32,639 bases of DNA from Deltaproteobacteria bacterium (GCA_016202335.1 JACQOX010000184.1:1-32639), one strand, 5' to 3'. Shown: positions 5,901-32,639, numbered from the stretch's first letter. Notes: generated from the letters alone by a model not told the origin. Numbers and translations: made by a program.

Positions 5901-5926
5901 TATCGGCAAAACGTCACAAAAGTTGC
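5901..5926 (-). promoter_or_regulatory. Sigma28-like promoter motif, copy 1
   Basis: Minus strand GCAACTTT-tgtgacgtttt-GCCGATA, 21 nt upstream of the ATG at 5879. Confidence 0.65.
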
Positions 5927-5990
5927 GTCTTTTTTTTAAAGCCCTCGATTTTCCCTTGCCCTCTGCGGAGGGCCTTTTTATAGGCTTAGC

Positions 5991-6713
5991 ATGTCGATGT
6001 TGCGCATTATTTCCCGCTTATTTCAAGCCCCGGTCGAAAAGCCAGGGGCGCTCTGCAACACGCCTTTCGAGGAGGAAGTCACCGATCGCATCCGGCTGAA
6101 CGACCTCACGCCCACATCCCCTGCTCCCACGGCATCCTGGGTCCCCAATATTCAGCGTCGGTTTCGGCCATCCGAATATATGAAGGTGCCGGTTCCCGCA
6201 TCACCTTCGCCAAAAACCTTTGCCGCCATTGCTCAGAAAATTCGACGCGGCGATGCCAAAGCAACGATCGATGGCATTGAATTCATCCAACATCTTCCTT
6301 ATGGGGATCACAGCGCTCTTCGACAAGACGTGGTCGCCATGAGCGACAAAGCCCCGCGCGAAGCAAGGCTCTTGCTCCGTGAACTTTTCCTGCGCTCGAC
6401 GCCGGTGGCACGCGCCACCGTCGTGCGCGCCATGATCGAAGTACCGGCGCTTGGTAACCGACGTTCCCTGGAAGACGCCTTTACCATGCTCATGTCCAGT
6501 TCGACCCCAGAGGAACGCCGCAGAAATATTTATCCCGCACTCCTCAGTATCATCGAAGCACCGCCGCTCCCCAATCAAGAAGCACGCTTCATGCAAGGTT
6601 GGCTCACCACCATCATGAAAGGGTGGATGAGCGAAGCCCCTGAAGTCCGCGAAAGTCCAAGGCTCGCCGAACGCACAGAGAAGATTTTTCCAGGCTCACT
6701 GCGAAAAACTTAA
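5991..6713 (+). CDS. Hypothetical protein (Pro-rich N-terminus, helical C-terminus)
   Basis: 240-aa ORF filling the gap between a divergent gene and a REP element; no recognisable motif. Confidence 0.65.
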   Translation: MSMLRIISRLFQAPVEKPGALCNTPFEEEVTDRIRLNDLTPTSPAPTASWVPNIQRRFRPSEYMKVPVPASPSPKTFAAIAQKIRRGDAKATIDGIEFIQHLPYGDHSALRQDVVAMSDKAPREARLLLRELFLRSTPVARATVVRAMIEVPALGNRRSLEDAFTMLMSSSTPEERRRNIYPALLSIIEAPPLPNQEARFMQGWLTTIMKGWMSEAPEVRESPRLAERTEKIFPGSLRKT

Positions 6714-6718
6714 AGACT

Positions 6719-6806
6719 GTCGTTGCGAGCCCGAAGGGCGTGGCAATCCAGTCTTGTCATCATGCCTGGATTGCTTCGTCGGACCTACGGTCCTCCTCGC
6801 AATGAC
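6719..6806. repeat. Paired REP-like palindromic element (GTCATTGCGAG...GCAATC family)
   Basis: gtcgttgcgag...gcaatccag in inverted orientation to ctggattgc...ctcgcaatgac, between convergent genes. Related half-copy at 27085-27118. Confidence 0.8.
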
Positions 6807-6807
6807 G

Positions 6808-7194
6808 TCAAATTACCACAATCGCTTCAATCTCAACCAACGCATCTTTGGGAAGTCGTGCGACTTCCACCGTCGCCCGTGCGGGCTTGTGGCTGGTGAA
6901 AAAACTGCCGTAGACTTCGTTCACCGCGGCAAAATCATTCATATTTTTGAGAAAAATGGTCGTTTTGGCCACCTGGGCGAGCGTTGCATTCTGCGACGCC
7001 AGCAAGGCTTTGATATTATTGAGGACCTGTCGCGCCTGCTCCGCGGCATTGCCGTCAAAGAGCTTCAGCTCATTGGTCACGGGATCGATCGGGAGCATTC
7101 CTGAGACGAACATGAGATTTCCGGCGCGCACGGCCTGAGAATACGGGCCGATGGCTTTGGGGGCTTTATCGGTAGTAATGGATTGGAGTGTCAT
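6808..7194 (-). CDS. ridA: RidA/YjgF reactive intermediate deaminase
   Basis: APKAIGPYSQA, SGMLPIDP, NEVYGSFF..KPARATVEVARLP..ALVEIE. Confidence 0.93.
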   Translation of the reverse strand: MTLQSITTDKAPKAIGPYSQAVRAGNLMFVSGMLPIDPVTNELKLFDGNAAEQARQVLNNIKALLASQNATLAQVAKTTIFLKNMNDFAAVNEVYGSFFTSHKPARATVEVARLPKDALVEIEAIVVI

Positions 7195-8213
7195 AAACAA
7201 AACTTTCCTTTCTCCATGATGACGCACCCATCGATTTCAATCGTCGTCTTGCACAGCACGCCATCGCAGTGGGCGTCGCTCGACCAGTCCGCTCCTGTCT
7301 GGAGTGGATACGGATTTCCCACCGCCATGTGAATACCCGGAAATTTTTCGTCCTGCAGCATATTGCCGATGAGCTTGGTGAGACCGATATTGGTGCCGAT
7401 GGCAAATTCGCCGATGCGCGAAGCATTCTCATCTGTGTCCAAATAACTTCGGAATTCCTGTTCGAGTTCTTTCAGTTCACAGCGAAGGCTGTCTTTGACG
7501 ACCCAACCGTTTTTCAACTCAAAGGAAATAGGATTTTTTTCGAGCGAACCATATTTTTCGGAGAAGAAATCGCCGAGCACACCATCCACCACCACATACC
7601 CATCGACCGAACGCGGACAGGTAAAGGTTTCTCCGTCGGGTAAATTGGTCCATTTCTGCGACGTAACCTCACCGGTACAGGGCACCCATTTCAACTTCGG
7701 ATCAAAGGTAGCCACGAGATTCGAACCGGCCGGGGTGGTCACGCGGATTTCTTTGGCAGACTTTGCAATGTCATACACCGCATGCGTCACTTTTTTGATT
7801 TCCACGTAATCCGCGGCCATACCCTGGTTCATCATCTCTTCAGTCACGCCGACCATGTGGGCATGACGAAGTTTGGCCGCTTTCACCGCCTCAAGCATGG
7901 GATGGCGAAAGGCCTTAAGCTCGCCCTTCTTTCCCGATGCCGCATAGAAACTCACGGTTGCCCAGGAGGCATAGATGTCGCGGAGGGCATCGGGAAACGC
8001 CAAAGGCGTTGATCCATCGGAAGGACGAGGCCCAAAATCTTCCATCGTAAAAAATTTGAGGTGATCGGTGATGCGGGAGGCCGCGACTTTAAGGGCCACA
8101 CCGATATTTTTGGATTGCTGATCGGTGATGATAACAACGCGATCGTCGGCCGTCACCTTCACACAATTTTCAACGGCTTGCTTGGCGCCAAAGGCGAGCG
8201 AATCATTCTGCAT
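7191..8213 (-). CDS. M29-family (aminopeptidase T/II-like) metallo-aminopeptidase
   Basis: NLPDGETFTCP, GEFAIGTN, LQDEK..GIHMAVG and HCD motifs. Confidence 0.88.
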   Translation of the reverse strand: MQNDSLAFGAKQAVENCVKVTADDRVVIITDQQSKNIGVALKVAASRITDHLKFFTMEDFGPRPSDGSTPLAFPDALRDIYASWATVSFYAASGKKGELKAFRHPMLEAVKAAKLRHAHMVGVTEEMMNQGMAADYVEIKKVTHAVYDIAKSAKEIRVTTPAGSNLVATFDPKLKWVPCTGEVTSQKWTNLPDGETFTCPRSVDGYVVVDGVLGDFFSEKYGSLEKNPISFELKNGWVVKDSLRCELKELEQEFRSYLDTDENASRIGEFAIGTNIGLTKLIGNMLQDEKFPGIHMAVGNPYPLQTGADWSSDAHCDGVLCKTTIEIDGCVIMEKGKFCL

Positions 8214-8283
8214 TTTTTTCGGCTAGGGGTTTGACGGAGGTTTGTCAAGCAGGCATAAGGCAAAAAACCTTGAGGAGAAAAAT

Positions 8284-8709
8284 ATGAAAAAGTTCATCGC
8301 GATAATCGCCATCGGCATTTTTTTCCCCCTTCTTTCCTATGGAGCCACGAAAATGATCACGAATCCCAGCGGTCTCAAATACCTCGATGCAAAAGTCGGC
8401 ACTGGCGCTGAAGCGAAAAAAGGCGCGCTCGTCACAGTGGATTACACCGGCTGGCTGAACGCCAAAGGCGAAAAAGGTTCGAAGTTCGACAGCTCGATCG
8501 ACCGCAACGAACCCTTTCAATTTCTGCTCGGTGCCCATCAGGTGATCCAAGGCTGGGACGAAGGCGTTGCCGGCATGAAAATCGGTGGCAAGCGCACCCT
8601 CTACATTCCCGCCAAACTCGCGTATGGCGCACGCGGCGCGGGCGGCGTCATTCCCCCGAATGCTGAACTCATCTTCGACGTTGAACTTCTGGATGTGAAA
8701 GCTCGGTGA
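8284..8709 (+). CDS. Exported FKBP-type peptidyl-prolyl isomerase
   Basis: Signal peptide MKKFIAIIAIG; YTGWL, FDSS, VIQGWDEG, AYG and IPPNAELIFDVELL. RBS gaggag. Confidence 0.95.
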   Translation: MKKFIAIIAIGIFFPLLSYGATKMITNPSGLKYLDAKVGTGAEAKKGALVTVDYTGWLNAKGEKGSKFDSSIDRNEPFQFLLGAHQVIQGWDEGVAGMKIGGKRTLYIPAKLAYGARGAGGVIPPNAELIFDVELLDVKAR

Positions 8710-9833
8710 AACTCGGCATCGACAGACTGCTTGACGAAGAACGGCGCCTACTCGAAGGTAAGCGTTTGGGGCTCCTGGCCCACAAGGCAAGTGTGAACGC
8801 CGAAGGCCTCCACACCGTGCGTCGTTTGTTAAGCGATCGCGCCTTTCAGGTCACCGCGCTCTTTGGTCCGGAACACGGCCTCGCCACGTATACCCAGGAC
8901 ATGGAAGCCGTGGCGACCGTCAATGATCCCACCTCAGGATTACCAGTCTACAGCCTCTACGGCGATTCGATCGCGTCGCTTTCCCCCACGCCGGAAATGC
9001 TGGATAAGATTGATATGCTTATCGTCGATCTCCAGGATATCGGCAGTCGCTACTACACGTACATCTGGACCACCGTTCTCGCCATGAAGGCCTGTGCTCA
9101 GGCCAAAAAAACCATGGTGATCTGCGATCGCCCCAATCCCATCAACGGTGTCACCGTGGAAGGGCCAGGCATTGCGCGTGGCTTCGAATCTTTTGTCGGC
9201 CTGCATTCGCTGCCAATCCGCCATGCCATGACCATCGGCGAAATCGCCCAGTACTTCAATAAACACGAAAAAATCGGCTGCAAACTCGAAGTCATGCACA
9301 TGGAAGGCTGGAAGCGCGAGAAGCACTGGCCGGATTTGAATCTTCCGTGGATCAATCCTTCGCCCAACATGCGATCACATCATGCCGCACTCCTCTATCC
9401 CGGCATGTGCCTGCTCGAGGGCACCAATGTCTCCGAAGGCCGTGGCACGGAAGCACCCTTTGACCTCATCGGGGCGCCGTTCATCCGAAGTGGAGAACTG
9501 CTTGATTATTTCTCGGCCTTGAGCCTGCCCGGTCTCACCGCCAGCGCCATCACCTTCACCCCCACCATGCAAAAGTGGGCCAACGAGCCCTGCCAGGGCC
9601 TGCAATGGCAGATTACCGATAAAACAGCCTTTAAATCCTATTTGACCGGCCTTGGGCTCATCTGGACGCTATATCATTTATATAGCAAGCGCGGTTTTGC
9701 CTGGCGCACCGAGCCCTATGAATTCGTCCGCGGCATTCCGGCCATCGATCTCTTGACCGGCAGTGACGTGTTTCGAAAACGCATCGACACGCGGGACTTT
9801 GAGGAAATAAAGGCACTTGCCACGAACTCATGA
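8706..9833 (+). CDS. namZ: DUF1343 / NamZ exo-beta-N-acetylmuramidase family
   Basis: LFGPEHG, YSLYG, DLQDIGSRYYTY, DRPNP, PSPNM and SEGRGT. GTG start overlaps the FKBP stop. Confidence 0.88.
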   Translation: MKLGIDRLLDEERRLLEGKRLGLLAHKASVNAEGLHTVRRLLSDRAFQVTALFGPEHGLATYTQDMEAVATVNDPTSGLPVYSLYGDSIASLSPTPEMLDKIDMLIVDLQDIGSRYYTYIWTTVLAMKACAQAKKTMVICDRPNPINGVTVEGPGIARGFESFVGLHSLPIRHAMTIGEIAQYFNKHEKIGCKLEVMHMEGWKREKHWPDLNLPWINPSPNMRSHHAALLYPGMCLLEGTNVSEGRGTEAPFDLIGAPFIRSGELLDYFSALSLPGLTASAITFTPTMQKWANEPCQGLQWQITDKTAFKSYLTGLGLIWTLYHLYSKRGFAWRTEPYEFVRGIPAIDLLTGSDVFRKRIDTRDFEEIKALATNS

Positions 9834-9897
9834 CTTTCTGCTTGTTCACGCTTGGGGACCATGATAGGGCGACGCCTCTTTCACACAGGAGGATAGC

Positions 9898-10500
9898 ATG
9901 ATTGCTGGTGGCGACAAAGTCTCGGGGGGCCTTTCTTTAAGTCAACAACTTCCAAAACAATTTTCAGCTTCACTCAGCACATTTAACCTCGAAAAGAAGC
10001 CTCAGGCCAAAAATGATCATCATGAAGCGGGGTTTGGAGGTATCTGCAACTCTACGGATTCATTAACTTCATTCGCCCCCTGGTGGAATGATGTCACCAC
10101 CTTCACCGGCAGACAAACAAATGAAGGCTATCGCCTCATCGTTTCCTTCAACAGCGAAGTCATCAATCCTCTCCTTCGTCGCGGCCAAGTTATTTTTGAT
10201 TATGACAAGACAACGGAAACGTGGAAAACACCGCAACCACAAGCCTACAGCGAGCCTGACTATAAGTTTTGCTCACCAGAAGGTGCGAAAGCGGTTATAG
10301 ATTTAGTTGTTGGTGGACTTCAATGTCTAGCCGCGGGAAACGTCGATAACGAAACAAGAGATGCGGCCGAAATCATTGCCCATCAACTTTATCACGTTGA
10401 TCTTTCGCAGGTCGCAACCTATTCAGCCAAAGATTGCCAGCCAAAAACACCTCTAAAAGCTGAGCTTCCAGCTTCATTTATTCCAGGCGATCATCAGTAA
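9898..10500 (+). CDS. Hypothetical protein
   Basis: Strong RBS aggagg before the ATG; 200-aa ORF that looks more AT-rich than the flanking core genes. Confidence 0.7.
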   Translation: MIAGGDKVSGGLSLSQQLPKQFSASLSTFNLEKKPQAKNDHHEAGFGGICNSTDSLTSFAPWWNDVTTFTGRQTNEGYRLIVSFNSEVINPLLRRGQVIFDYDKTTETWKTPQPQAYSEPDYKFCSPEGAKAVIDLVVGGLQCLAAGNVDNETRDAAEIIAHQLYHVDLSQVATYSAKDCQPKTPLKAELPASFIPGDHQ

Positions 10501-10509
10501 TCTGATACA

Positions 10510-10887
10510 TTATTCAAAGAGATAAGCGTCCGGCATGAGCTCCGCGAGCTGAGATCGTTTGGTCTTGCCTTCCAGGTTCGCCATGATCACTTCCAGCTCG
10601 GGCGCAAACTCAAGCAGTGTTTGGCGACAAAAGCCGCACGGCGGGATGGGATGTTTTCGCTCAGCCACCGTTACAATGCGCTTAAACAAGCGCTCACCTT
10701 GGGAAAGCGCTGAAAAGAGCGCAACACGCTCTGCACACAAGCAGCTGATGGCAGACGGACTTTCCACATTGGCTCCCGTGTAAACCTTGCCCTTCGCGGT
10801 TTCCAAAGCCGCGCCAACTTTATAGCCCGTCACATGGGCACAGGCGTGTTCGCGTGCTACCTTGGCCGCTTGAATGAGTTTTTTCAT
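10510..10887 (-). CDS. cdd: Cytidine deaminase (homotetrameric type)
   Basis: VGAAL, GANVE, CAERVA and PPCGFCRQ. Confidence 0.92.
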   Translation of the reverse strand: MKKLIQAAKVAREHACAHVTGYKVGAALETAKGKVYTGANVESPSAISCLCAERVALFSALSQGERLFKRIVTVAERKHPIPPCGFCRQTLLEFAPELEVIMANLEGKTKRSQLAELMPDAYLFE

Positions 10888-13403
10888 TTTCGTCTCTTAC
10901 CTTTTTGCCGCGGCGGTTTCGGTGGTTCGGGTTGCGGCGGTCGGTCGTGATAGATGTCATGCTGCGGCATGGACTCCGTACCGCCTTGCTCGGCCAGGAG
11001 ATCAGAAATCTCGGCAAGGCGATGTTGGGCCAGGCCGTGCACGGTACCAGCAAGATACTTTCCGCGTTTATTCATGACACCCGCTTTTTTGCCCGTTAAA
11101 ATTTCAATCCCTTCATCAATTGATTTGACCGCATAGATATGAAACTTCCCTTTGCGTACGGCTTCCACCACATCGCTGCGCAGCATCAGATGACGCTCGT
11201 TTTGATGTGGAATGAGCACGCCCTGCTTGCCGGTCAATCCTTGGGCCTTGCAGACATCGAAGTAACCTTCGATTTTTTCGTTCACACCACCGATCGGCTG
11301 GATGTCGCCGTGCTGATTAACGGAACCCGTGACCGCCAGACCTTGATCGATGGGGAGTCCTGAAAGACTCGAAAGCAACGCATAAATTTCAGTCGATGAC
11401 GCGCTGTCGCCATCAACGCCGCCATACGACTGCTCAAAGGCGATCGATGCCGACAGCGTGAGTGGCGCGCGTTGCGCATATTTTTGACGGAGATAACCGG
11501 AGAGAATCAGTACCCCTTTATCGTGCGTCGGTCCCGAAAGCCCGCATTCGCGTTCGATGTTGACGATCCCGGCCTTGCCCACTGCCGTCACTGCGGTGAT
11601 GCGCGTCGGTTTGCCGAAACTCGTGTAGCCCATGGAATACACGGCCAAGCCATTGACCTGTCCCACGCGCTTGCCGCGGGTTTCGATCATCAAGACACCT
11701 TCTTCGATCATCCGCTGAATGCGCGACTCAGTCCGACCATGGCGTTCGCGTTTGGCTTGAATGGCGTCCTCGACGTGACGACGGGTGATGCGATCGTCGC
11801 CGTGTTCCGTCGCCATATGATGCGCTTCGCGTAAACAATCGCTCACGTTCGTAAAGCGCGTGGTGAGGCGATCGCGTTGCCCGGAAAGTTCGACGCCGTA
11901 TTCGATCAGCGCCGACAGACCATCTGCCGACAGCAATTTCAATTTGCCGCGGTCGCAAACTGATTTCAGCACGGCCGCAAATTCCTTGGCTGCTTTGGGC
12001 GTGAGCTTCATCGACGAATCAAAATCAGAGAGAATTTTGAACGTCTTGGAGAATTCCTCTTCGTATTCCCACAGCAGGTGATACAGCCAATCCGGTCCGA
12101 TCATGATGACCTTGACCGTCAGCTCAATCGGTTCTGGTTTGATGGCCAGCGGCGCCAACTGGACGTAGCTTTCCGGCTGTTGAATGACGAGCTTGCCCGT
12201 CTTGAGCACGCGCTTCAGATGATCCCAGACAAACGGCCGCTTAAAAACGTCGAGGGCATTGACGATCAGATATCCACCATCGGCCTTGAGCAAGCTACCC
12301 GCTCGGATGTGGCGGAAATCCGTGGTCCACATGCCGCCGGGGGCAATGTTGTATTCGAGCACGCCAAATAAATTCGTGTACGTGGGATTATCTTCTTCAA
12401 TAATGGGACAGATCGCATTTTGTTTTCGTCCGTCAGTGAGGAGATTGACTTCATAAAACCAAAAGGGATCTTCAGGGCGCATGGGTCCAGCCATCATAAA
12501 CATGGCCTTGTCGCTGTCGCGATCCGATTTGCCGATGATGGCGTCGACATTACCGAGGACGTGTTCGCGCACGCGCTTTAAATAATCACGAATTTTGGGA
12601 TCAGCATAGCGCGTCTCAAGCTCGTCCATGACACTGTCCAAAATCAGGGAACACCAGCGCGCCTGCAGTTTTTCCAATTCAACGTGCATCGCTTTCGCAA
12701 GCACGCGCGCTTCGCCGAGCACGCGTTTGAGATCAGTATTGAGTTCGCTGTGGCGGCCAAGTTTCACGCGGCGTTCCGACTCACTAAGTTTGCCTTCTTT
12801 GACGAGCGTCGCCAGGTAATCGATGGACACGGCCTCTTCGCCGACGATGGGAAACACCGTCGGCGCGATCAGTCCACCTTCCTGCACCTGGATGAGCGCA
12901 AAGCCTTCAGCCTTGAGTTTCGCGGCAAAGGCTTCGAAGAGTTTCTTTTCATCGCGCTGAAAACGGTCGATAATTTTTTCGCGTTCGCGGGAAACCTGCG
13001 TGGATTCAAGCGCTTTGGGCAGATCCGCGCGAAGCACGCGCACGAGGCCCTTCATGTCGTCGCGAAACTGCTTTCCTTGCCCGGGCGCAAACGTCAGCAA
13101 CACCGGCTGCAGATGGTCGGCAAAATTGTAGACGTAGGCGCGATCCGGCACAGGAATACAGGCTGGCTCCAGTTCTTCGAGCGTGCGACGGATCGTGGTC
13201 ATGCGCCCGGTGCCGGCCATGCCGGAGACGTAAATATTATATCCGCGCGGCGCGAGCTTGATGCCGGTTTCGAGTGCGGTGATCGCGCGCTCTTGACCGA
13301 CCACGCCTTTGGCGCCGGAAAAAGTTTCAGGATTTTTATAAAAAGAAAGAAAGGCTTTTGTGGTGCGGAAACGGAGCGCTTCGGGTTTCAATTTTTTGAT
13401 CAT
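10884..13403 (-). CDS. Lon-like (LonC/AAA_32 + Lon_C) protease
   Basis: GQERA, degenerate Walker A GMAGTGRMT, GSLLKADGGYL, catalytic DGDSAS and GGVNEKIEG (Ser-Lys dyad). Confidence 0.92.
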   Translation of the reverse strand: MIKKLKPEALRFRTTKAFLSFYKNPETFSGAKGVVGQERAITALETGIKLAPRGYNIYVSGMAGTGRMTTIRRTLEELEPACIPVPDRAYVYNFADHLQPVLLTFAPGQGKQFRDDMKGLVRVLRADLPKALESTQVSREREKIIDRFQRDEKKLFEAFAAKLKAEGFALIQVQEGGLIAPTVFPIVGEEAVSIDYLATLVKEGKLSESERRVKLGRHSELNTDLKRVLGEARVLAKAMHVELEKLQARWCSLILDSVMDELETRYADPKIRDYLKRVREHVLGNVDAIIGKSDRDSDKAMFMMAGPMRPEDPFWFYEVNLLTDGRKQNAICPIIEEDNPTYTNLFGVLEYNIAPGGMWTTDFRHIRAGSLLKADGGYLIVNALDVFKRPFVWDHLKRVLKTGKLVIQQPESYVQLAPLAIKPEPIELTVKVIMIGPDWLYHLLWEYEEEFSKTFKILSDFDSSMKLTPKAAKEFAAVLKSVCDRGKLKLLSADGLSALIEYGVELSGQRDRLTTRFTNVSDCLREAHHMATEHGDDRITRRHVEDAIQAKRERHGRTESRIQRMIEEGVLMIETRGKRVGQVNGLAVYSMGYTSFGKPTRITAVTAVGKAGIVNIERECGLSGPTHDKGVLILSGYLRQKYAQRAPLTLSASIAFEQSYGGVDGDSASSTEIYALLSSLSGLPIDQGLAVTGSVNQHGDIQPIGGVNEKIEGYFDVCKAQGLTGKQGVLIPHQNERHLMLRSDVVEAVRKGKFHIYAVKSIDEGIEILTGKKAGVMNKRGKYLAGTVHGLAQHRLAEISDLLAEQGGTESMPQHDIYHDRPPQPEPPKPPRQKGKRRK

Positions 13404-13488
13404 GCGACTCTTTCTATGTCAGGAATTTTCTCCGCTTGCGCTTCCCTCTCAAAAAAGTCAACGTGATGCTGTCTCAGAGGGAAGAGTT

Positions 13489-13782: not shown

Positions 13783-13795
13783 CGAGCACGTCGCA

Positions 13796-14968: not shown

Positions 14969-14977
14969 GGGAAAAAT

Positions 14978-15008
14978 AAAGGGGACGTTTCTGAGAAACG
15001 TCCCCTTT
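14978..15008 (-). terminator. Intrinsic terminator after tRNA-Leu
   Basis: Perfect inverted repeat aaaggggacgtttct-g-agaaacgtccccttt, followed by a T-rich tract on the minus strand. Confidence 0.8.
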
Positions 15009-15012
15009 CCTG

Positions 15013-15094
<82 letters not shown>

Positions 15095-15097
15095 AGG

Positions 15098-23374: not shown

Positions 23375-25972
23375 ATGGGACGTCCAGTACAAATCCGAAG
23401 CGATCCACCACTTCCCTTAGAAGTGCGTGATGCTTTGGAATTACTCATCATGACCGGAAATTTTCCGCCGCTTCTTCAATCTGGTTCCAGTACATTATCC
23501 AAATCGATTTCACCCGCTGAAGTCACCGTCGAGTTCGGCGAGTTTGATCACTTTGTTTTCAATGACCCAAAATGGCCATCGGAAACTTTTCGCCAAGCCC
23601 GCAAGGTGGCAAAACGACTACATCCCATCGACATATATTTACCACCCGAGATCACCGAACGCATCAAAGCGATCAAAAGCCAGCTTGAACGGCAGAAACT
23701 AACGAAGACAGGAACATGCGAGCGCTTCTATGAGCTGGGAATAAAACCCTATACTGACGGTGGGCTCGGTTTTTTTGATCGCTTTAGTCGACTTTTAGAT
23801 GATCGAGATGCCGTCCTCACATCCTCAGAATCCAAACGCAAGAGCATGGAGCTTACTGCAGCGGACGCCTTTGCTGGAGTCCTTGATTCCAGCAATGCTT
23901 TCGGAGGCACAAGTGAAACCGCCTATAAAATTCTTACTGCCTATCGAGCGCTTCAGGCTCCATGCGAATTAAAAATCATTCAGACACACAATCACGTTTT
24001 TGTGGAACACCAAGGGCGTGCCTTGGATCCAACCGGCATTGGTGAACTTGGATGGCGCCGTGAAATCACTCCCGCGCAACTGGCCGCCCTCTATTACGAA
24101 CGCTCTTCTGCTGCGACTCCTGACCCTGAAGTCATGGTTGAAGCTCAGTCCATTGCGTCGCACATCGATCCCAATCGCATGGGTACGGGTACTTTTATGG
24201 CCTATGCCAATTGGGTCGGTGGTCACTATGATGTTGCGGTCAGTAACACCACAAGGGCGATTCAACTTCATCCTGACAACATTGAACCAGCGCTTTTTCT
24301 TTTTCACCTCGCACGATCTTCCCCATCGCCGGAGCGACAAAGAACAGTCGCTCACAATTTCATGTCCATGCTGCCGGATCACATTGCTTCCACTGTGGTC
24401 TTGTCTGGGCTTTGCTTTGACAATGGGACCTGTGAAGAGGAGGTCGCTTGGTTGAAAAAAACTTTCCCCGATATGGGCCTTTCAGAAATGCTCAAAGCAC
24501 AAATGGCCTTTAAAGACCAATCACTGGATAGTGCTGAAATGTGGCTCGGCCTTGCGAAAACAAAGTTTCCGGCAGTAGCCATCCAGGAAATGAAAGGTAC
24601 CAATCATCCCCTTTCCATGGTCTTACAGCTAGGCGCAAAAATTTCGCTTGCGAAACAAACTTCATTTGCTCCCGCGGTAGCGGAACAAGACATCACATGG
24701 TCATTGAATATTGCTCCCTTGTTACCGGGAAGCCACGCCACCCTCGCAGAAATATATCGTCGTCAGGGCCGTTATGACTTGGCTTATCAAGAGATGAAGC
24801 GAGAGTTTGTGATTTCGACGCGTTTGGAAAATCTTTTTGCGGCCACCGGTGAATGCGCGTTACAGGCCGGCGACGTAAAATCGGCTCTTGATTTTGCCCG
24901 TCAGCACGTTGTGGAAGTTCCGGAAGAAAGTAGAGGCTACGCCCTTTTGGCAAAAATAGCCCTGACCGGCCACACCTCTGCTGCCATCGAACTAGCTCAT
25001 CAACACGCCAAGCGTGCGGTGGAACTTGCGATGAAAGAACCCTCTCCACTCCAAGCCCTTCGACTCGTTGAACTAAGCCGCATTGCCCTTCTGCTGAATA
25101 ACGGCCTCGTTCTGGCACGTGGCTACGCTGAACAGGCGCTCACAGCTGATCCTAATTCTTTTGCCGCCAAACAAAATCTCATCGAAGTTCTTTTGGCCAC
25201 GGGAACGGTCGAGGCACGCAAAGAAGCTTTGGCCAGAGCCCGCGACATGACAACGGTTTCAGAAGAACCCCAGGTGTGGTCTTTTGCAGCCACAGTCCTG
25301 GCCAGGTTGGGGTACCTGGACGATGCAGAGGCCTACTTCCGCCGAGCATTAACAACAGGATTTGTTCAACCTGAAACCTACGCAGGGCTTTTCGAAGTTC
25401 TTTTATCAAAAGATCCTGCCACCGCGCGCCAATTTTCCGAGGAAATGCGACGCCGGCACGAAAACACCCCTTGGTTCCTCGGGGTGGATGCCTATGTGGC
25501 CATGCTTCAGGGCGAGCAGGGTCGTGCTCTTGATCAGGCGGCAAAGGCGCTCAAATATAATCCTAATGACTATCATGCCCTTATCGCTTCTGGACTGGTG
25601 TACGTGCAACGAAAGACCCCCCGAGAGAGAAAAAAATCTCTTCAAGAGGCAAATAGGATTTCGGAGCATCTGAAAAAAATGTATCCCTTTGCTCCCATAA
25701 CCCATGTGCTGGAAGCTCGGGTAAACATGCGTTACGCTGCTTGGAGCGCAGCTCAACGCGCAGCCGAAGAAGCGGAACGGCTATCGCCCAACGACGACGG
25801 CAGCATCACATCCCTCAGCGTGCTTGAAACCTTGGTCGCTGTTTTAGAGGAAAGAAAGAATTTTTCTCGAATGCGTGACGTACAAACACGCATCGCCGGC
25901 AATCGCAGACGCCGCTCAGGAAATGTCCCCGGAAAACAGCACGCTGACTTTATTTCATCACCGCGCTATTGA
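23375..25972 (+). CDS. TPR-repeat protein with an N-terminal transglutaminase-like domain
   Basis: HNHVFVE...ALDPT, then many TPR-like helices (AIQLHP, LAEIYRRQGRYDLA, LGYLDDAEAYFRRAL, ALKYNPND). Start codon uncertain. Confidence 0.75.
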   Translation: MGRPVQIRSDPPLPLEVRDALELLIMTGNFPPLLQSGSSTLSKSISPAEVTVEFGEFDHFVFNDPKWPSETFRQARKVAKRLHPIDIYLPPEITERIKAIKSQLERQKLTKTGTCERFYELGIKPYTDGGLGFFDRFSRLLDDRDAVLTSSESKRKSMELTAADAFAGVLDSSNAFGGTSETAYKILTAYRALQAPCELKIIQTHNHVFVEHQGRALDPTGIGELGWRREITPAQLAALYYERSSAATPDPEVMVEAQSIASHIDPNRMGTGTFMAYANWVGGHYDVAVSNTTRAIQLHPDNIEPALFLFHLARSSPSPERQRTVAHNFMSMLPDHIASTVVLSGLCFDNGTCEEEVAWLKKTFPDMGLSEMLKAQMAFKDQSLDSAEMWLGLAKTKFPAVAIQEMKGTNHPLSMVLQLGAKISLAKQTSFAPAVAEQDITWSLNIAPLLPGSHATLAEIYRRQGRYDLAYQEMKREFVISTRLENLFAATGECALQAGDVKSALDFARQHVVEVPEESRGYALLAKIALTGHTSAAIELAHQHAKRAVELAMKEPSPLQALRLVELSRIALLLNNGLVLARGYAEQALTADPNSFAAKQNLIEVLLATGTVEARKEALARARDMTTVSEEPQVWSFAATVLARLGYLDDAEAYFRRALTTGFVQPETYAGLFEVLLSKDPATARQFSEEMRRRHENTPWFLGVDAYVAMLQGEQGRALDQAAKALKYNPNDYHALIASGLVYVQRKTPRERKKSLQEANRISEHLKKMYPFAPITHVLEARVNMRYAAWSAAQRAAEEAERLSPNDDGSITSLSVLETLVAVLEERKNFSRMRDVQTRIAGNRRRRSGNVPGKQHADFISSPRY

Positions 25973-27079
25973 AAGGTTCTTGAGGTAAGGCGTATCCCAT
26001 TCCAATGTGAGGGCTGGACGGTTCTTCGAGGCCTGTTTCTGCATCATCGACCCGACAATGAGGGGTAATGAAACCGAAGGCTCCACAAAGGCCATGGAGT
26101 GCGTGGCTTTTTTGCTGACCTTGCCCCAACTGGTGGCTTCGTCGAGCGTTGAACCGGAAAGGCCGCCCCAGTGAGGAGCGTCGGTCGTGAGCTGAAGCGC
26201 ATAGCGATGACCACCCGTGTCGAGTCCGAAAATGTACGACATGACCACGGAATCGTTGATGAAGTTTTTGGGAACGCCGCCGGCAATGTAAACCGCTGCG
26301 GTACATTTTGATTTCACGACGATTTGGGTGAGTTCGTAATTATCGCGAATGGAATCGATCGTCATGCCCGGCCGCTTTTCCTTGAGGCAGCGGTGATAAT
26401 GGTCGGTGATGCCGATGCCGATCGAGGAATCGTTGAGCGCCGGTGAAAAGATGGGGACACCTTTGCGCGCAGCCGTGGCCAGAATAGAATTTTTATCGTC
26501 CACGCTCTTGCCCAACTCGTACAGAAACTGCCGGCTGGAATAATTTCCCGGCGGAAGTTTGTCCGCAAAAGCACCGACCGAGCAGTCGAGCCGCCAGAAA
26601 CGGTCTTCGTCGACGTACGTGTCATAAATACGATCGATGTAGAGATCGCGCAGTTTCTTGTCGTCGGCTTCGGGACTTCCCACGGCGTGCTTGAAGCCCA
26701 TGGCCTGATAGAGATCTTGGTAAAGAATCGCGCCCGTTGAAACCACGGCATCGACCATGCCAAATTCAATCATATCGCGGATGACCTTGCGAAGGCCCGC
26801 AGCAATCAGCGGACCGGCGATTCCCAACAAAATCGTCGGACGCTCAGCATCGGTCAACATCTGCTCATAGACGTCAGCGCACTTGCCGATGTTTCGAGCC
26901 TGAATCGAGGCCTTGCCATAGGCCGCGACCAGATCTTCGATGGTCGCAATCTTTTCCAGGTCGATCATTTCCACCGGCTGGCCAAGGAGTTCCCGTTTTT
27001 CGGCTTTTTGCGTTTCCGTCAGCGTGGGGAATACGATTTTTGAGGGGTTTTCGAGTACAGAAAATTTCTTGTCAGTCAT
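25958..27079 (-). CDS. Deoxyhypusine synthase-like protein (probable homospermidine synthase type)
   Basis: STGAILYQD, IDRIYD, PALNDSSIG, GGVPKNF and GGLSGSTLDEATSWGK (catalytic Lys). Confidence 0.92.
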   Translation of the reverse strand: MTDKKFSVLENPSKIVFPTLTETQKAEKRELLGQPVEMIDLEKIATIEDLVAAYGKASIQARNIGKCADVYEQMLTDAERPTILLGIAGPLIAAGLRKVIRDMIEFGMVDAVVSTGAILYQDLYQAMGFKHAVGSPEADDKKLRDLYIDRIYDTYVDEDRFWRLDCSVGAFADKLPPGNYSSRQFLYELGKSVDDKNSILATAARKGVPIFSPALNDSSIGIGITDHYHRCLKEKRPGMTIDSIRDNYELTQIVVKSKCTAAVYIAGGVPKNFINDSVVMSYIFGLDTGGHRYALQLTTDAPHWGGLSGSTLDEATSWGKVSKKATHSMAFVEPSVSLPLIVGSMMQKQASKNRPALTLEWDTPYLKNLSIAR

Positions 27080-27084
27080 TTGTT

Positions 27085-27118
27085 GTCATCGCGAGCCCCG
27101 CAGGGGCGTGGCGATCTC
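27085..27118. repeat. Single REP-like unit of the GTCATTGCGAG family
   Basis: gtcatcgcgagccccgcaggggcgtggcgatctc matches gtcgttgcgagcccgaagggcgtggcaatc at 6719. Confidence 0.75.
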
Positions 27119-27340
27119 CTGGTGTTCGATTTCATTCAACTCTTGTAATATCCAATCGTAAATCTTTGCTTCCACCGAAATGGGGGATCGCCCCTGCTTA
27201 TAACGATTCCGAATCAGCTCCACCACGCGACCAAAATCACCGGCAGTCGTCTCGAGCTCGGTTTCAGAAAGCTCATTCCAGCGGCTCAAAATTTTTGGTT
27301 TGATGGCGGGCCAGTTGGCTTGTAATCGATTCGGCATCAT
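27086..27340 (-). CDS. CsbD/YjbJ-like general stress protein
   Basis: LQANW..IK.KI..RW.EL.E.EL....G....V...I..RY pattern. Confidence 0.7.
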   Translation of the reverse strand: MMPNRLQANWPAIKPKILSRWNELSETELETTAGDFGRVVELIRNRYKQGRSPISVEAKIYDWILQELNEIEHQEIATPLRGSR

Positions 27341-27401
27341 AAGCGCGGATTTCTGTAACGGCGAGCTTGCGGGTTGTCAATGAGGAAGCTAAAGAGAATC
27401 T

Positions 27402-27824
27402 ATGAAAATTCTTCTTCTTTTTGTGCTCACGCTTTTTTCCTGCACCGATGAACCCGCCCGCCGCATCACTGGCGACGCGCTCCGCGATGAACTTTTGAAT
27501 GTCCGGGAAATCAAGATCGTGAATTTCAGCATCTCCGGGCAGGCCGCATGCGAACGATGTCTGCGCGAAAACATCCCGATCACCGGCCTGCAGATTGAAG
27601 TCTATGCTTCAAACGACCCCATGACCACCTTGGCCAGCGGCATCTTCAATGGCTTGGGCCCGTTTTCCATCTCCAACATGAAGGCTGCCAAGGATGCGGA
27701 GTTGGAAATCAACGCCATGCTCTATCGCGGGTCGATCGATGCCTCTTCGGCGTGGCTGGCCAGTGCCAAGATCAAAGTTCCGGAAGATGATGGGGAGGTG
27801 GTGACGGTAGTTTTGAATTTTTAG
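27402..27824 (+). CDS. Putative lipoprotein
   Basis: MKILLLFVLTLFSC lipobox-like signal; beta-rich body with CERC. Confidence 0.75.
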   Translation: MKILLLFVLTLFSCTDEPARRITGDALRDELLNVREIKIVNFSISGQAACERCLRENIPITGLQIEVYASNDPMTTLASGIFNGLGPFSISNMKAAKDAELEINAMLYRGSIDASSAWLASAKIKVPEDDGEVVTVVLNF

Positions 27825-29205: not shown

Positions 29206-29257
29206 AGGAGCGAATCGCTAGCATGGAGTGCTTAGGGCGACAACTTTTTTCATTTTA

Positions 29258-29314
29258 CCGCTCATCCTGAGTTTTCGACGATCCGCTCATCCTGAGCCCG
29301 TCGAAGGATGAGCG
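29258..29314. repeat. REP-like repeats upstream of the GIY-YIG gene
   Basis: ccgctcatcctgag (29258) and the full hairpin ccgctcatcctgagcccgtcgaaggatgagcg (29283-29314). Confidence 0.85.
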
Positions 29315-29320
29315 AAAACT

Positions 29321-29626
29321 ATGGCTTTCTGGGTATACATTCTAAAGTGCAATGACGATTCCTACTATACCGGCCATACTGATGATCTTGAAAAAAGAAT
29401 GTTTGAACATCATTCAGGAGCCATTGAAGGTTATACAAAAAATCGTCGCCCATTAAGGTTGATTTTTTGTGAGCAATTCTCTTCTCGAGAAGATGCGTTT
29501 CAACGAGAACGACAAATCAAAGGATGGAGCAGACTAAAAAAAGAAGCGTTAATAAAAGAAGATTGGGAATTGCTGTCTTTTTTGTCCCGAAAGAAATCGG
29601 CTCATCCTTCGACGAGCTCAGGATGA
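29321..29626 (+). CDS. GIY-YIG nuclease (UPF0213/YhbQ-like)
   Basis: WVYIL.C.D.SYYTGHT.DL.KR...H, YT..RRP, A..RE.QIKGWSR.KK.ALI. Confidence 0.93.
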   Translation: MAFWVYILKCNDDSYYTGHTDDLEKRMFEHHSGAIEGYTKNRRPLRLIFCEQFSSREDAFQRERQIKGWSRLKKEALIKEDWELLSFLSRKKSAHPSTSSG

Positions 29627-29682
29627 GCGGATGTCACGGGGTTCAGGATGAGCGGTTTGTTTGATAGATTCAGGATGAGTGG
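29600..29682. repeat. REP-like repeats downstream of the GIY-YIG gene (inverted copies)
   Basis: gctcatccttcgacgagctcaggatgagcgg (29600-29630), tcaggatgagcgg (29643) and tcaggatgagtgg (29670). Confidence 0.85.
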
Positions 29683-29828
29683 AACTATTGAAGAAAGGGA
29701 AGAATTTTTTAGGCCTTTTGAAAAATCGATGGTTATTTTTCCATCGTCAAAATCTTTATCAAAATCAGGTGGTTGGCGCTTTTTCGATTTCATAGGAAAG
29801 ACCATAGTCAAAAAAGAGAAAAATACAC

Positions 29829-29854
29829 GCAACTTTTTTGGAATGCGGTCGAAG
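29829..29854 (+). promoter_or_regulatory. Sigma28-like promoter motif, copy 2
   Basis: GCAACTTT-tttggaatgcg-GTCGAAG. Confidence 0.6.
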
Positions 29855-29872
29855 ATAGAGATAGAGGCATAC

Positions 29873-31414
29873 GTGAATTTATCACCATTATCATTTCGCA
29901 TGGGACCCATAGGGACAAACGCTCCTGTGCAAACCACTGTTCTCGCTTCGGTTGCCGGCATTCCCGGCGATGCCTTTGCGATCGCGCCCCACCGCGCTTT
30001 TCCTGGGATGACGGGGCTTCATCACCATCTGTTTGCCCACAGTGGGCCGACAGGAGGCGCTACGCCACCTGCGAGTCCGTTGCTAGCCGGTGCTCTAGAA
30101 AAGAAACATGGCTTTAGCACAATCCTCGAAGACCCACGTTATGGTGTCATTTCCACTGATGCCCATGGATTGTATGGCCCGTCCTACAGCTTTACCCATC
30201 CTGGCGGAAAGAGTAATGGCGTAAATGAGGATACGGTGGTTCAAGGAGAGCACGGTGCCGCTGTGCTCGACGGCGTCAGCACCGCAGCTGGAGCTATTGC
30301 CAGCGAAATTGCCGCAGAACACATATTTGACGATTTGATGAATTCAAATCCTGATCTCAACGCAGCTTTTCTCAAAGCCCATGCCGAAATAAATGCGAGG
30401 GCACCGGGATCATCGACCGTAGCGGTTGCTTATACCATTGTCGGAGACACAGACGGCAAAGAACATGTCCATGTTTTTCATGCGGGCGATGCGTTTGCGG
30501 TGCTCTTCGATAAAGAAGGAAATAAAAAACAGAGAACGGAGTATCACAACCTAGCTGCTGCACAGGCAGCTATGGCGGGCCTTCAGCTAAGCACGCAACA
30601 GCTAGCAGCAGCGCCTGGCGCAAATGTGGTGCTCTCGACTTTAGGAGGAGCATATGATCCAGAAATTACAGAAGATATTTGGGTCATTGAAGAAGGCGAT
30701 CGTTTGCTCCTCTCGTCCGACGGTCTGGAAAAGTTTCATTCAGAGTATGAAGCAGATAATATCAACATTAGCTTGGGAGAAATCCTCGCGCAGGCCGATA
30801 CTCCGGAAGCGGCTGTTGGGTATCTTGCCGACGAAGCCATGAAACGCATTAACGATGGAACGGGCAAGCCAGACAATTTAGGCTTTCATGTCTATTTTCA
30901 TAAACGCCCAGCGCTGGCTGCCATAGAGGAAGTTCGTGCTGCACTTGAACGTGAATTGAGCGGCATCAGAGCCGAAGCAAAAACAAAATACCCTCCATCT
31001 CGGCTGAGCAGGCTTGCAGAATGGGTCGACTCGACCCAACTCCTCCGGCGCAAGGCTGTGTGGGCAGCGGCAGCTGCTGTTGGAGGGGCTTCGTTTGCGT
31101 TGAGTGCTTCTCTCGCTCAGCAAGGGATCTGGGTTGATGATGATCTCTTTTTGCCGCTCAACCCCTTTGTCGTCATTGCTCCTTCATTTGGATTCACTGC
31201 TTCTGCGGCAATTTCCGCGGCGCTTTACCTGATTGGCAGAAGGCAGGCGAATAAACGTGGCAAGAAAGAGACTGCGTTCTTCCAACGCAGAGACGTCGGA
31301 CCTCTGAAGAGCGCATTGGTTGAAATCTCGCTTATGCCCTCATCCTTTATTGAGGGTCAAATCTCGGCAGATGAGGTGAAGCAGAAGTTGGCAGAGTACG
31401 AAAAGCTTATTTAG
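29873..31414 (+). CDS. PP2C/PPM-family Ser/Thr phosphatase with C-terminal hydrophobic helices
   Basis: NED, AVLDGVS, HAGDA, LLLSSDGL and DNL motifs; two hydrophobic segments near the C-terminus. Start placed at GTG 29873 after a GAGG RBS (alternative ATG 29900). Confidence 0.8.
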   Translation: MNLSPLSFRMGPIGTNAPVQTTVLASVAGIPGDAFAIAPHRAFPGMTGLHHHLFAHSGPTGGATPPASPLLAGALEKKHGFSTILEDPRYGVISTDAHGLYGPSYSFTHPGGKSNGVNEDTVVQGEHGAAVLDGVSTAAGAIASEIAAEHIFDDLMNSNPDLNAAFLKAHAEINARAPGSSTVAVAYTIVGDTDGKEHVHVFHAGDAFAVLFDKEGNKKQRTEYHNLAAAQAAMAGLQLSTQQLAAAPGANVVLSTLGGAYDPEITEDIWVIEEGDRLLLSSDGLEKFHSEYEADNINISLGEILAQADTPEAAVGYLADEAMKRINDGTGKPDNLGFHVYFHKRPALAAIEEVRAALERELSGIRAEAKTKYPPSRLSRLAEWVDSTQLLRRKAVWAAAAAVGGASFALSASLAQQGIWVDDDLFLPLNPFVVIAPSFGFTASAAISAALYLIGRRQANKRGKKETAFFQRRDVGPLKSALVEISLMPSSFIEGQISADEVKQKLAEYEKLI

Positions 31415-31426
31415 ACAGAATAACAC

Positions 31427-31452
31427 GCAACTTTTTTGAGCGGCAGTCGAAG
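31427..31452 (+). promoter_or_regulatory. Sigma28-like promoter motif, copy 3
   Basis: GCAACTTT-tttgagcggca-GTCGAAG. Confidence 0.6.
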
Positions 31453-31492
31453 ATATAAACAGAGGAAGCATCATTTTCAATGGAGTTCACTT

Positions 31493-32599
31493 ATGAGCAA
31501 CTGCAAAGTCACTTCTCACAGTGCGTGTATCCAGGGTTCTGTAACAGAAGCTTTTTTTAAAGCGGTCATGGATATTTGGGATGGTGGCAGCTGGAAGACT
31601 CGAGAGTTTACAGTAACGAAGAGAAACCCTGAATATGGCCCCTGGTCTGGGATCTTTGGTCGATCCCCTGTAATCGATGAATCACGTCTTGACAACTATA
31701 GCTACGACCCTCCGCAAAATTATGAAGAGATTTGCGTGGAAGAGTTTGTTTGCCCGCAATTTAGCACTCCCTTAATATTAACAAATAATTCTGCCAGGGC
31801 AGCGCTTGCCGCCTCCCAGAACGCAGTTGTAGAGACTTTTAATAATGCGCATGTTGAAAACTGGGATCCAGAAGTTCGCAACCTCTTTGGGGCCATCTCT
31901 GAGTTTTCGTCCATTGAATTCATTCGCGCTGCTCCACTTGCATCCACAAATTTTCTTCTGAATGGGGTTCGGGGGAGCGTTGAGCATTATTTCGAAGCGG
32001 TAAGTAAATATTTTACAGCTCGATACGCGCAGCCTCTGTGCGAACGAGATTCAATGGACACGCTCCTCAGAGGGTTGGCCCCAGATGACGTGGTGCTGGG
32101 AGACCATTATGGAACAGATAGGAAGAAGTACAACGATGCAATGGCGCGGTCAGAAATAGATGAGCATGCACTTATAGAAGCTACCACGTATTTTGCCACG
32201 CGCGACCAAAATTTAGCACACGCCCTCATGGCGGCTTGGTACTTCCGCGGCGGCAATATAACTGCGGCGAAGGCGGAAACCGATCAGATTTGCTTTCCCA
32301 AAACGGATCTTTCTACCAGCCGTGACCGTATCATTGCCAAGGTGCTTTCGGATGTGAATCGCGCTGCTGCAGCTCCCACAGGCGAAGAAGACAAAGCCCC
32401 AACCGGCGCTACCGAAACACCCCCGACCAGAAAGCCTTCTAAGAAAACGAGACCTGCTGAGCCTGCAGACGACTCTGCTAAAAGGGCTCGTGAGGCCGAA
32501 AAACGCCGCAAAGCCGAAGAAGCGGATAAAAAGCGCCGCGAGGCAGAAGACGCTGCTAAACCGGGTAAACGAGGACGGCCAAGAGACGAAGGATTTTAA
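31493..32599 (+). CDS. Hypothetical protein with a Pro/Lys/Arg/Glu-rich C-terminal tail
   Basis: ggag RBS before ATG 31493; 368-aa ORF with a low-complexity charged tail. Confidence 0.7.
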   Translation: MSNCKVTSHSACIQGSVTEAFFKAVMDIWDGGSWKTREFTVTKRNPEYGPWSGIFGRSPVIDESRLDNYSYDPPQNYEEICVEEFVCPQFSTPLILTNNSARAALAASQNAVVETFNNAHVENWDPEVRNLFGAISEFSSIEFIRAAPLASTNFLLNGVRGSVEHYFEAVSKYFTARYAQPLCERDSMDTLLRGLAPDDVVLGDHYGTDRKKYNDAMARSEIDEHALIEATTYFATRDQNLAHALMAAWYFRGGNITAAKAETDQICFPKTDLSTSRDRIIAKVLSDVNRAAAAPTGEEDKAPTGATETPPTRKPSKKTRPAEPADDSAKRAREAEKRRKAEEADKKRREAEDAAKPGKRGRPRDEGF

Positions 32600-32639
32600 A
32601 ATACCGAAATAATTGGCTTCAGAGCAACTTTTTCTGAAG

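Follow-up and report, generated by a model that had tools for sequence, protein, structure and literature searches.

What is the two-box element that recurs at an identical spacing in front of accessory genes on a 32,639-nt contig of an uncultivated groundwater bacterium (Deltaproteobacteria bacterium, GCA_016202335.1), which protein would read it, and what kind of genes would it control? A reading of the contig made from its sequence alone (the sequence-only reading) had taken the element for a promoter with the geometry of sigma-28 (FliA) promoters and a different -35 box, and the genes behind it for a lineage-specific set of effector-like orphans. We analysed the contig in full (C144 of the assembly, positions 1-32639; hereafter the window), the genome to which it belongs (G000; 1,647,107 bases in 195 contigs, 81.1% complete, 52% G+C) and related genomes of the same phylum. 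Our results suggest that the element, of the core form GCAACTTTTT-N-GCCGATAA, probably represents the class of promoters used by a divergent sigma factor of the FliA/WhiG type (group 3) that is encoded inside the gene cluster of a T3SS (type III secretion system).

The two-box element in the window and in the genome

Within the window, the pattern GCAACTTT-N11-GYCGAW matched exactly at 5902-5926 (-), 29829-29853 (+) and 31427-31451 (+), whereas 100 shuffles that preserved dinucleotides gave 0.00 matches on average. The three sites of identical spacing described before were thus borne out, only their end coordinates having been one base off. The box GCAACTTT by itself occurred five times where 1.54 copies were expected, a number reached in 2 of 100 shuffles; one additional copy, at 3576-3583 (-), has no -10 box, and the other, at 32624-32631 (+), is the copy that had been noticed at the contig end, where the rest of the element is cut off. 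The bases that follow it, TTCTGAAG, agree with the start of the consensus spacer, and positions 32624-32639 are likely a fourth promoter truncated by the end of the contig. Neither end of the window overlaps with another contig of the assembly; one public contig (run X1) extends 470 nt past base 32639. The distances between -10 octamers and start codons are 20, 17 and 39 nt (Table 1), where roughly 20-40 nt had been claimed.

Table 1 Promoter elements in the window and the genes that follow them
Feature	Position	Strand	Description	Weight-matrix score
Promoter 1	5900..5926	-	-35 box GCAACTTT (5926-5919), 11-nt spacer, -10 octamer GCCGATAT (5907-5900)	33.4
Gene 1 (P0001, 354 aa)	4815..5879	-	ATG at 5879, 20 nt past the -10 octamer; orphan	
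Promoter 2	29829..29855	+	GCAACTTT, 11-nt spacer, -10 octamer GTCGAAGA	32.0
Gene 2 (P0003, 513 aa)	29873..31414	+	GTG at 29873, 17 nt past the -10 octamer	
Promoter 3	31427..31453	+	GCAACTTT, 11-nt spacer, -10 octamer GTCGAAGA	27.0
Gene 3 (P0002, 368 aa)	31493..32599	+	ATG at 31493, 39 nt past the -10 octamer; GGAG 7 nt upstream	
Putative promoter 4	32624..32639	+	GCAACTTT followed by TTCTGAAG; -10 region cut off by the contig end	

The exact pattern occurred 38 times in the genome. A weight matrix of 34 columns, iterated from the exact sites, found 117 sites at score 16, 107 at score 18 and 98 at score 20, whereas the same genome read backwards, which served as the control, gave 4, 1 and 0; a scan of the genome, which the sequence-only reading had proposed for upstream regions, returns 98-107 sites against 0-1. 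No further site with a score of 16 or more was found in the window, in agreement with the claim that its core genes lack the element. In the genome-wide matrix both boxes are conserved and the spacer is variable, and the full consensus reads (A)(A/C)GCAACTTTTT(C/T)-N-GAAA-N3-GCCGATAA(T)AA. The -10 box is the sigma-28 octamer GCCGATAA (matrix columns for 128 sites: G100 C90 C124 G127 A127 T110 A114 A96), with the weaker form GTCGAAGA at both right-hand sites of the window, and the -35 consensus is GCAACTTT, not the TAAAG(TTT) of sigma-28.

The spacing between the boxes was strict. GCAAC and CCGATA were 15 nt apart at 66 sites, 14 nt apart at one and 16 nt apart at six, with at most one in the control at every spacing; N15 between pentamer and CCGATA corresponds to 11 nt between the octamers, the fixed spacing of the sigma-28 type. 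The octamer GCCGATAA occurred 119 times in the genome, 42 times with GCAAC in register. The canonical TAAAG-N15-CCGATA was found at one site in G000, which is chance level, and at 0-1 sites in four relatives, whereas GCAAC-N15-CCGATA was found at 27-79 sites across G000 and the same four relatives. Sigma-28 geometry with a different -35 box, as had been proposed, therefore describes about 100 oriented sites genome-wide.

We then compared the sites with a crude gene map that was built without reference to the motif. A called start lay 0-100 nt downstream on the same strand for 57 of the 98 sites with a score of at least 20; the positional enrichment before start codons, which had been set as a test beforehand, is thus 58% of sites against 5.1% of 20,000 random positions. 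When the starts were chosen with the motif as a guide, the median distance was 28 nt, and of 95 sites 85 had their start within 100 nt and 75 within 50 nt. Six of the 117 sites lacked a downstream open reading frame (ORF); three of them had a contig end no more than 74 nt away, and the scores of the other three were low. The chosen start was closer than 6 nt to the octamer in 1 of 111 cases and at 6-8 nt in 15 of 111. In the accessible part of a study of the Pseudomonas sigma-28 open complex (PMC12784957), GCCGATAA spans -15 to -8, which by our arithmetic places +1 seven nt after the octamer. Transcription would accordingly be predicted to start about 7 nt after the octamer, and both the lower bound and the peak at 6-8 nt fit such a start.

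Many of the 15 starts at 6-8 nt, such as those at C20:18375-18400 (-), C75:14115-14140 (+) and C132:5158-5183 (-), have no Shine-Dalgarno sequence; the roughly 15 start codons at this distance appear to point to leaderless messages beginning at the ATG. At C129:6216-6241 (-) and at the C94 site, two cargo genes homologous to a gene on C185 appear to lose the frame right after the promoter-proximal ATG, and the long ORF begins about 150 nt downstream at a TTG; these may be frameshifted copies or assembly errors. One high-scoring site, C127:3056-3090 (+) (locus L230, score 30.1), is inside dnaG, about 1.3 kb before an rpoD-like gene, and may be an internal promoter that feeds the housekeeping sigma factor or a chance site.

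A pair of conserved boxes could also serve a DNA-binding regulator as its operator or belong to a dispersed repeat, and this explanation may draw on the lack of transcript data and on the few sites that lie inside genes. It is hard to combine with conservation limited to the two boxes across a varying spacer, with the strict single spacing, with the one orientation towards start codons and its sharp 6-nt lower limit, and with a -10 box that matches the sigma-28 octamer in full. The consensus shows no dyad symmetry, and the sites are dispersed, with clustering and location at contig ends both at chance: 30 of the 98 sites had a neighbour within 3 kb against 24.7 +/- 5.5 expected, and 25 of 98 were at contig ends against 23.7% expected. 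We consider an operator or a repeat very unlikely.

The element is widespread among the relatives of this bacterium. The pattern was found in 40 of 41 relatives at 1-63 copies per genome (control, 0-1), and the stricter form GCAACTTT-N11-GCCGATA in 79 of 93 genomes, which are the whole phylum as collected (one class, 24 families), with a control total of 1; two families, f7 and f10, have few copies. As in G000, the sites stand before genes: 40 of 48 were within 100 nt of a start in G025, a genome of a different family, and 18 of 20 in three genomes of the family of G000. The phylum may correspond to UBA10199 of GTDB, a name for which no paper was found that also mentions a T3SS; MnmG was no guide to its placement, with a best match of 55% to Planctomycetota metagenome-assembled genomes. 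The suggestion of a lineage-specific program has to be given up in its narrow sense, as the motif is phylum-wide within the collection.

A FliA-like sigma factor inside a type III secretion cluster

Three genes of the sigma-70 family were seen in G000, namely RpoD, one extracytoplasmic function (ECF) sigma factor with a membrane partner, and one FliA/WhiG-like sigma factor. In the assembly the last of these genes is divided between two contig ends, those of C143 and C9, with a 20-nt overlap between them. Its best NCBIfam family is FliA_WhiG (3.9e-24, N-terminal half), and its best matches in the Protein Data Bank are WhiG (6pfj, 98 bits) and FliA (6pmi, 79 bits), with 50 bits for the best primary sigma. 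Against the curated cut-off of the FliA/WhiG family TIGR02479 (189.6 bits), the two halves score 86.2 and 49.7 bits. A divergent FliA/WhiG-like sigma of this kind was present in all 41 genomes searched. Two of them, G033 and G014, have a second, canonical FliA over the cut-off (223.5 and 220.8 bits; loci L168 and L169), and yet TAAAG-N15-CCGATA is not enriched there, with 0-1 sites.

The sequence-only reading had advised looking for a fliA-like sigma and inspecting its region 4.2, and this inspection revealed an altered recognition helix. The helix reads LSKSWT(S/C)RLHARAL in all six sequences aligned (G000, G023, G025, G030, G032 and G035), with KSWTSR in G000 against ESRVSQ in solved FliA and WhiG and ESRISQ in the canonical FliA of G033 and G014; with the residue before it, the motif of the solved and canonical helices is (S/T)ESR(V/I)SQ. 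In the Pseudomonas FliA helix, S224 and Q228 make base-specific contacts with the -35 element, according to the available text of PMC12784957. If our numbering offset is right, the equivalent of Q228 would be Arg in the sigma of the T3SS cluster and that of S224 would be kept. A changed helix together with a changed -35 box, next to an unchanged -10 box, would look like co-evolution of sigma and promoter. These observations suggest that the FliA-like sigma of the T3SS cluster reads the motif. The regulon is real and is a variant of the FliA type with a new -35 box; we set it apart from the ordinary FliA type because its -35 box is a different one and because its sigma factor scores below the family cut-off and lacks the family's helix motif.

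The ECF sigma factor, encoded on C151 with an adjacent membrane anti-sigma-like gene, is the other conceivable reader. It would take GCAAC as an AAC-type -35 and CGA as a CGT-like -10, and an AAC-N16-CGA geometry is similar to that of ECF promoters. A homologue (E 1e-8) was not found in 25 of 40 relatives, including all three genomes of the same family and the motif-rich G023, G025, G031, G007, G011 and G018, whereas the genomes richest in ECF matches (G024, G032 and G039) have 1-4 exact sites alone. ECF sigmas usually regulate their own genes, and no motif site precedes the ECF operon. In addition, the 8-nt -10 box is the sigma-28 consensus. That the ECF factor reads the motif is highly improbable.

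The gene order around the FliA-like sigma, read across C143 and C9, begins with SctJ and two small ORFs; the sigma comes next, followed by a 163-aa ORF, FliG-like, SctL, SctN, SctO, a FliK-like SctP, two FliN-domain genes, FliO-like and SctR (loci L255 and L256). The small ORFs on either side of the sigma in G000 measure 139, 116 and 163 aa. The sigma lies between SctJ and SctL/SctN in G000, G025 and G023, which represent three families, and the clusters of G025 (L259) and G023 (L260) have the same order with, in addition, SctV, SctD, FliM-like, SctS and SctT; their SctD has FHA, PEGA and TPR parts. An intact sigma gene is found in L259, at 9303-10247. In G000 the SctV protein scores 752 bits (cut-off, 692), and it is the single FHIPEP protein, which passes the SctV cut-off and fails that of FlhA. 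The cluster thus mixes injectisome parts (SctD, SctJ, SctO and an SctV-type FHIPEP) with FliG-, FliM-, FliN- and FliO-like genes.

An ordinary flagellar class 3 regulon would account for the FliA-type -10 box and geometry and for the FliG-, FliM-, FliN- and FliO-like genes in the cluster. This is hardly conceivable given the rest of the gene content: neither flagellin nor a rod/hook C-terminal domain was found in G000 (the genome being 81% complete), and FlgM gave a chance-level match alone (E 0.57). The FHIPEP protein is of the SctV and not the FlhA kind, and the cluster has parts of the injectisome type, namely SctJ, SctO and, in G025 and G023, SctD. None of the 85 proteins behind the promoters matches a flagellar Pfam family.

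The motif is absent from the cluster loci of G025 and G023 in its loose regular-expression form, and no site at score 16 was found on C143, C9 and C60. Of the two places proposed for a test of enrichment, orphan genes make up most of those behind the sites; no flagellar gene set was found, and these T3SS loci hold no sites at the settings given. An SctC-type secretin passed TIGR02516 in 0 of 41 genomes, the matches being limited to the generic secretin domain, and the single secretin fragment of G000 scores best as PilQ or GspD. As for needle and translocon proteins, neither the cluster's nor the regulon's small proteins had a Pfam or NCBIfam match, no dedicated search having been made. Beyond the phylum, the SctV proteins that come closest (46-54% identity) belong to metagenome-assembled genomes (MAGs) of Myxococcota and Bradymonadales. 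Because no SctC secretin was found and the nearest SctV are of these groups, the machine resembles the secretin-less "Myxo" or T3SS* type.

Cargo genes and the proposed regulon

Most proteins encoded behind the promoters, hereafter the cargo, are orphans. No Pfam match at E 1e-4 was obtained for 67 of 85 cargo proteins (sites with a score of at least 20, within 100 nt), and 99 of 111 downstream proteins were singletons in an all-against-all BLASTP search, confirming the orphan nature that had been ascribed to them. The matched enzymes include a histone-deacetylase domain, a Ser/Thr kinase, two subtilases, a Met-zincin and an FGE-sulfatase domain, and the DNA-related matches are a 1852-aa SNF2 protein, a ResIII/DEAD helicase, a D12 DNA methyltransferase and two HTH_3 proteins. 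Others are DUF7790, a CarboxypepD_reg domain and an Rv0078B-related antitoxin domain (E 7.5e-6, below the cut-off), with weak matches to MIT, HATPase_c and PP2C; DnaG is on the list through the site inside dnaG, upstream of rpoD.

Classical signal peptides were predicted for 7 of 80 cargo proteins. The lack of signal peptides that had been ascribed to the cargo holds for the majority and fails for the conserved core, which consists of proteases with Sec signals and of lipoproteins. Promoters are kept at the homologues of five G000 cargo genes in other genera: those of the C57 Met-zincin (in G025 and G002), the C33 gene and the C20 828-aa protein (both in G025), and the C124 lipoprotein and the C107 subtilase (both in G003).

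In G000 the N-termini of the cargo are poor in charged residues. Positions 2-25 contain on average 2.56 charged residues in G000 cargo and 5.16 in 1610 other ORFs, and 45% of the 80 cargo proteins have at most one there against 6.4% of background ORFs (Mann-Whitney p = 3e-16). In 37 G000 cargo proteins, including the one encoded at 29873-31414 of the window, an uncharged leader of 20-60 residues was seen in which Ala, Pro, Ser, Thr and Leu abound and which is less hydrophobic than a transmembrane segment. An uncharged N-terminus rich in Ser, Thr and Pro is typical of type III export signals. The location of the sigma gene hints, if weakly, that the cargo may include type III substrates.

The three genes of the window are examples of this cargo. 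P0001 has a Cys...His pair in its translation that could be read as papain- or NlpC/P60-like. It matched no Pfam or NCBIfam family, had homologues in 0 of 40 relatives, and in a word-seeded search of 5.8 billion proteins (lengths 194-620 residues) only itself was found. In the ESM Atlas, NlpC/P60 structures came up as leads with template modelling (TM) scores of 0.29-0.35, all under the bar, and feature matches of at most 0.76; the label "papain-like" retains these sub-threshold leads and has no family match behind it. The N-terminus of P0003 is uncharged and hydrophobic segments stand at its C-terminus; a PP2C-like domain is weakly recognisable. Its PP2C label agrees with a match to Pfam PP2C_2, a weak one (E=1.1e-5); the PP2C part alone matches, weakly, in 6 of 40 relatives, and paralogues of P0003 are on C26, C189 and C50. 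P0002, an orphan with no Pfam or NCBIfam family match, has a Lys/Arg-rich C-terminal tail. In translation, its last ~70 residues (window 32380-32599) are rich in Lys, Arg, Glu and Ala and end in a G-R-P core flanked by basic residues, similar in look to a nuclear-localisation or AT-hook-like tail.

Other parts of the window hold a small GIY-YIG nuclease gene (29321-29626; Pfam E 5e-18), bracketed (29260-29653) by six copies of GCTCATCCT, half of them direct and half inverted. Because GCTCATCCT has 41 copies in the genome and 2 in the reversed control, we regard it as a dispersed element similar to repetitive extragenic palindromes. Among the core genes of the window are one for a deoxyhypusine-synthase-family protein (25958-27079 (-); Pfam DS, E 1e-87) and one for an 839-aa LonB/LonC-like protease (10884-13403 (-)).

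We propose the following scheme for the FliA-like sigma and its promoter class. The secretion-apparatus operon, which has no such promoter, would be transcribed by another holoenzyme and would produce the sigma, which would then activate about 100 dispersed, mostly single-gene units, or ~6% of the genes. The -10 box would be read as by ordinary sigma-28, and the new -35 box (GCAAC for TAAAG) by the altered region 4.2 helix (KSWTSR for ESRVSQ). Such an order of events would be a two-step cascade resembling flagellar class 2 to class 3. The cargo consists of fast-turning-over orphans and of a few conserved members, proteases and lipoproteins exported by the Sec route; it has the look of a secretome made at one stage for use on a host or prey, and part of it may leave the cell through the T3SS.

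Several observations weigh against this scheme. The two halves of the G000 sigma gene are joined by the 20-nt overlap alone, and the intact sigmas of relatives, at 117.8-144.1 bits, are themselves under the TIGR02479 cut-off. The link between sigma and motif lacks phyletic discrimination: G034, G006, G024 and G032 also carry the sigma and have 0-1 exact sites, and because it is present in every genome searched, these included, co-occurrence cannot discriminate. Public runs that cover window 29700-32639 are four groundwater DNA runs of one study, with no RNA run among them, and at least one high-scoring site is inside a gene (dnaG). To these may be added that no SctC-type secretin was found in the 41 genomes. 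The uncharged leaders were not replicated elsewhere; by the same procedure, the leaders of G025 had a mean of 4.45 charged residues (at most one in 4 of 40) and those of same-family relatives a mean of 4.50 (at most one in 1 of 18), and for this reason we take the uncharged leader to be a feature of the genus and not of the regulon. Finally, wherever a pair of homologues has kept the promoter, the proteins carry a Sec signal.

Some of these points fit another explanation, in which the regulon is a general stage-specific program like the attack phase of Bdellovibrio, with no functional link to type III export and only an incidental housing of its sigma in the T3SS cluster. What is conserved of the regulon from genus to genus are proteases and lipoproteins with Sec signals, a few cargo proteins carry classical signal peptides, and the uncharged leaders are not replicated in G025 or in relatives of the same family. 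There is also a precedent: in the accessible part of Karunker et al. 2013 (PMC3627812), TTAAG-N16-CCGATA is present at 92 of 140 mapped attack-phase promoters of Bdellovibrio bacteriovorus, many of them of non-flagellar genes. On the other side, three families have the sigma gene at the same place in the T3SS cluster, signal peptides are lacking in most of the cargo, and the leaders are shared by 37 cargo proteins in G000. We regard such a program as a possibility of some weight, short of an even chance.

A bolder version of the scheme would be that the phylum keeps an early, secretin-less type III machine with a flagellar-style late-gene sigma, the ~100 orphans being its substrates and the uncharged leaders the export signal. 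The sigma might be freed only upon assembly or triggering of the machine, for instance through the export of an unrecognised anti-sigma from the neighbouring small genes. We think this doubtful; if true, the promoter would allow the substrates of a T3SS*-like apparatus to be catalogued from sequence alone for the first time, and the system would be a living intermediate of the transition from flagellum to injectisome.

More generally, the promoter offers a cheap sequence tag for ~6% of the genes, which would be co-regulated, fast-evolving and largely secreted or effector-like; in the genomes of such an uncultivated groundwater phylum, this is the part beyond the reach of annotation by homology. 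The system would also be a clean natural case in which sigma and -35 box change together and the -10 box stays fixed. The secretin-less cluster with FliG-, FliM- and FliO-like parts bears on the origin of the injectisome from the flagellum, and the system as a whole on what "needleless" type III machines export. A text search of the literature returned no published description, a weak negative as such a search is blind to DNA motifs.

Comparison with known systems

Among described systems, the regulon most resembles the attack-phase program of Bdellovibrio. In both, a sigma-28-type promoter appears to be co-opted for a large non-flagellar, stage-specific set in a small-genome bacterium, a set that, as far as the accessible part of PMC3627812 goes, comprises surface proteins, proteases and proteins of unknown function. 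Here, in contrast, the -35 box is GCAAC, no flagellar genes were found and a T3SS cluster houses the candidate sigma, a divergent paralogue. Most of the cargo are orphans specific to the genus, and its promoters are known from sequence alone, whereas those of Bdellovibrio, in the text available, were mapped by RNA.

The canonical FliA class 3 regulons of Escherichia coli, Salmonella and Pseudomonas, as far as described in the accessible part of PMC12784957, share the GCCGATAA octamer and the distance between the boxes, and there too the sigma is encoded with an export apparatus and drives late genes, as would the present one. Their -35 is TCTAAAG, whereas the TAAAG form has one site here against 66 for GCAAC. 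The recognition helix also differs, being ESRVSQ in the canonical regulons and KSWTSR in G000.

Chlamydial sigma-28 is reportedly comparable (Shen et al. 2006), with late-gene promoters that are said to form a small regulon with a TAAAG-like -35 box. It is likewise said to serve non-flagellar developmental genes in a non-motile, T3SS-bearing, small-genome bacterium. The present bacterium is no chlamydia, its nearest SctV relatives being MAGs titled Deltaproteobacteria, Myxococcales or Pseudobdellovibrionaceae.

HrpL of Pseudomonas syringae is an ECF sigma encoded with a T3SS, and its hrp box stands upstream of the genes of type III effectors. As in the present case, a T3SS-encoded alternative sigma marks a dispersed, fast-evolving repertoire, and the promoter box can serve to list the candidates. 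The FliA-like sigma of the T3SS cluster here is not of the ECF class and the box is a different one; export of the cargo through the T3SS is proven for HrpL-dependent effectors, whereas here it is inferred.

With respect to the machine itself, the closest likeness is to the "needleless" T3SS* of Myxococcus xanthus, for which the accessible part of PMC12075869 describes a role in predation and substrates that are unknown, and to the "Myxo" group of non-flagellar T3SS (PMC3459982, seen in part). The accessible text of the latter paper, by Abby and Rocha, makes no mention of "sigma" or "FliA". According to these partial sources (PMC12075869, PMC3459982), the systems share with ours a sorting platform and an export apparatus without a dedicated secretin. 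Predation was shown for the myxococcal system, whereas that of the present phylum is known from its genes. In contrast to the systems as described there, the machine of this phylum comes with flagellar-like C-ring and FliO genes and with what would be a late-gene sigma of its own.

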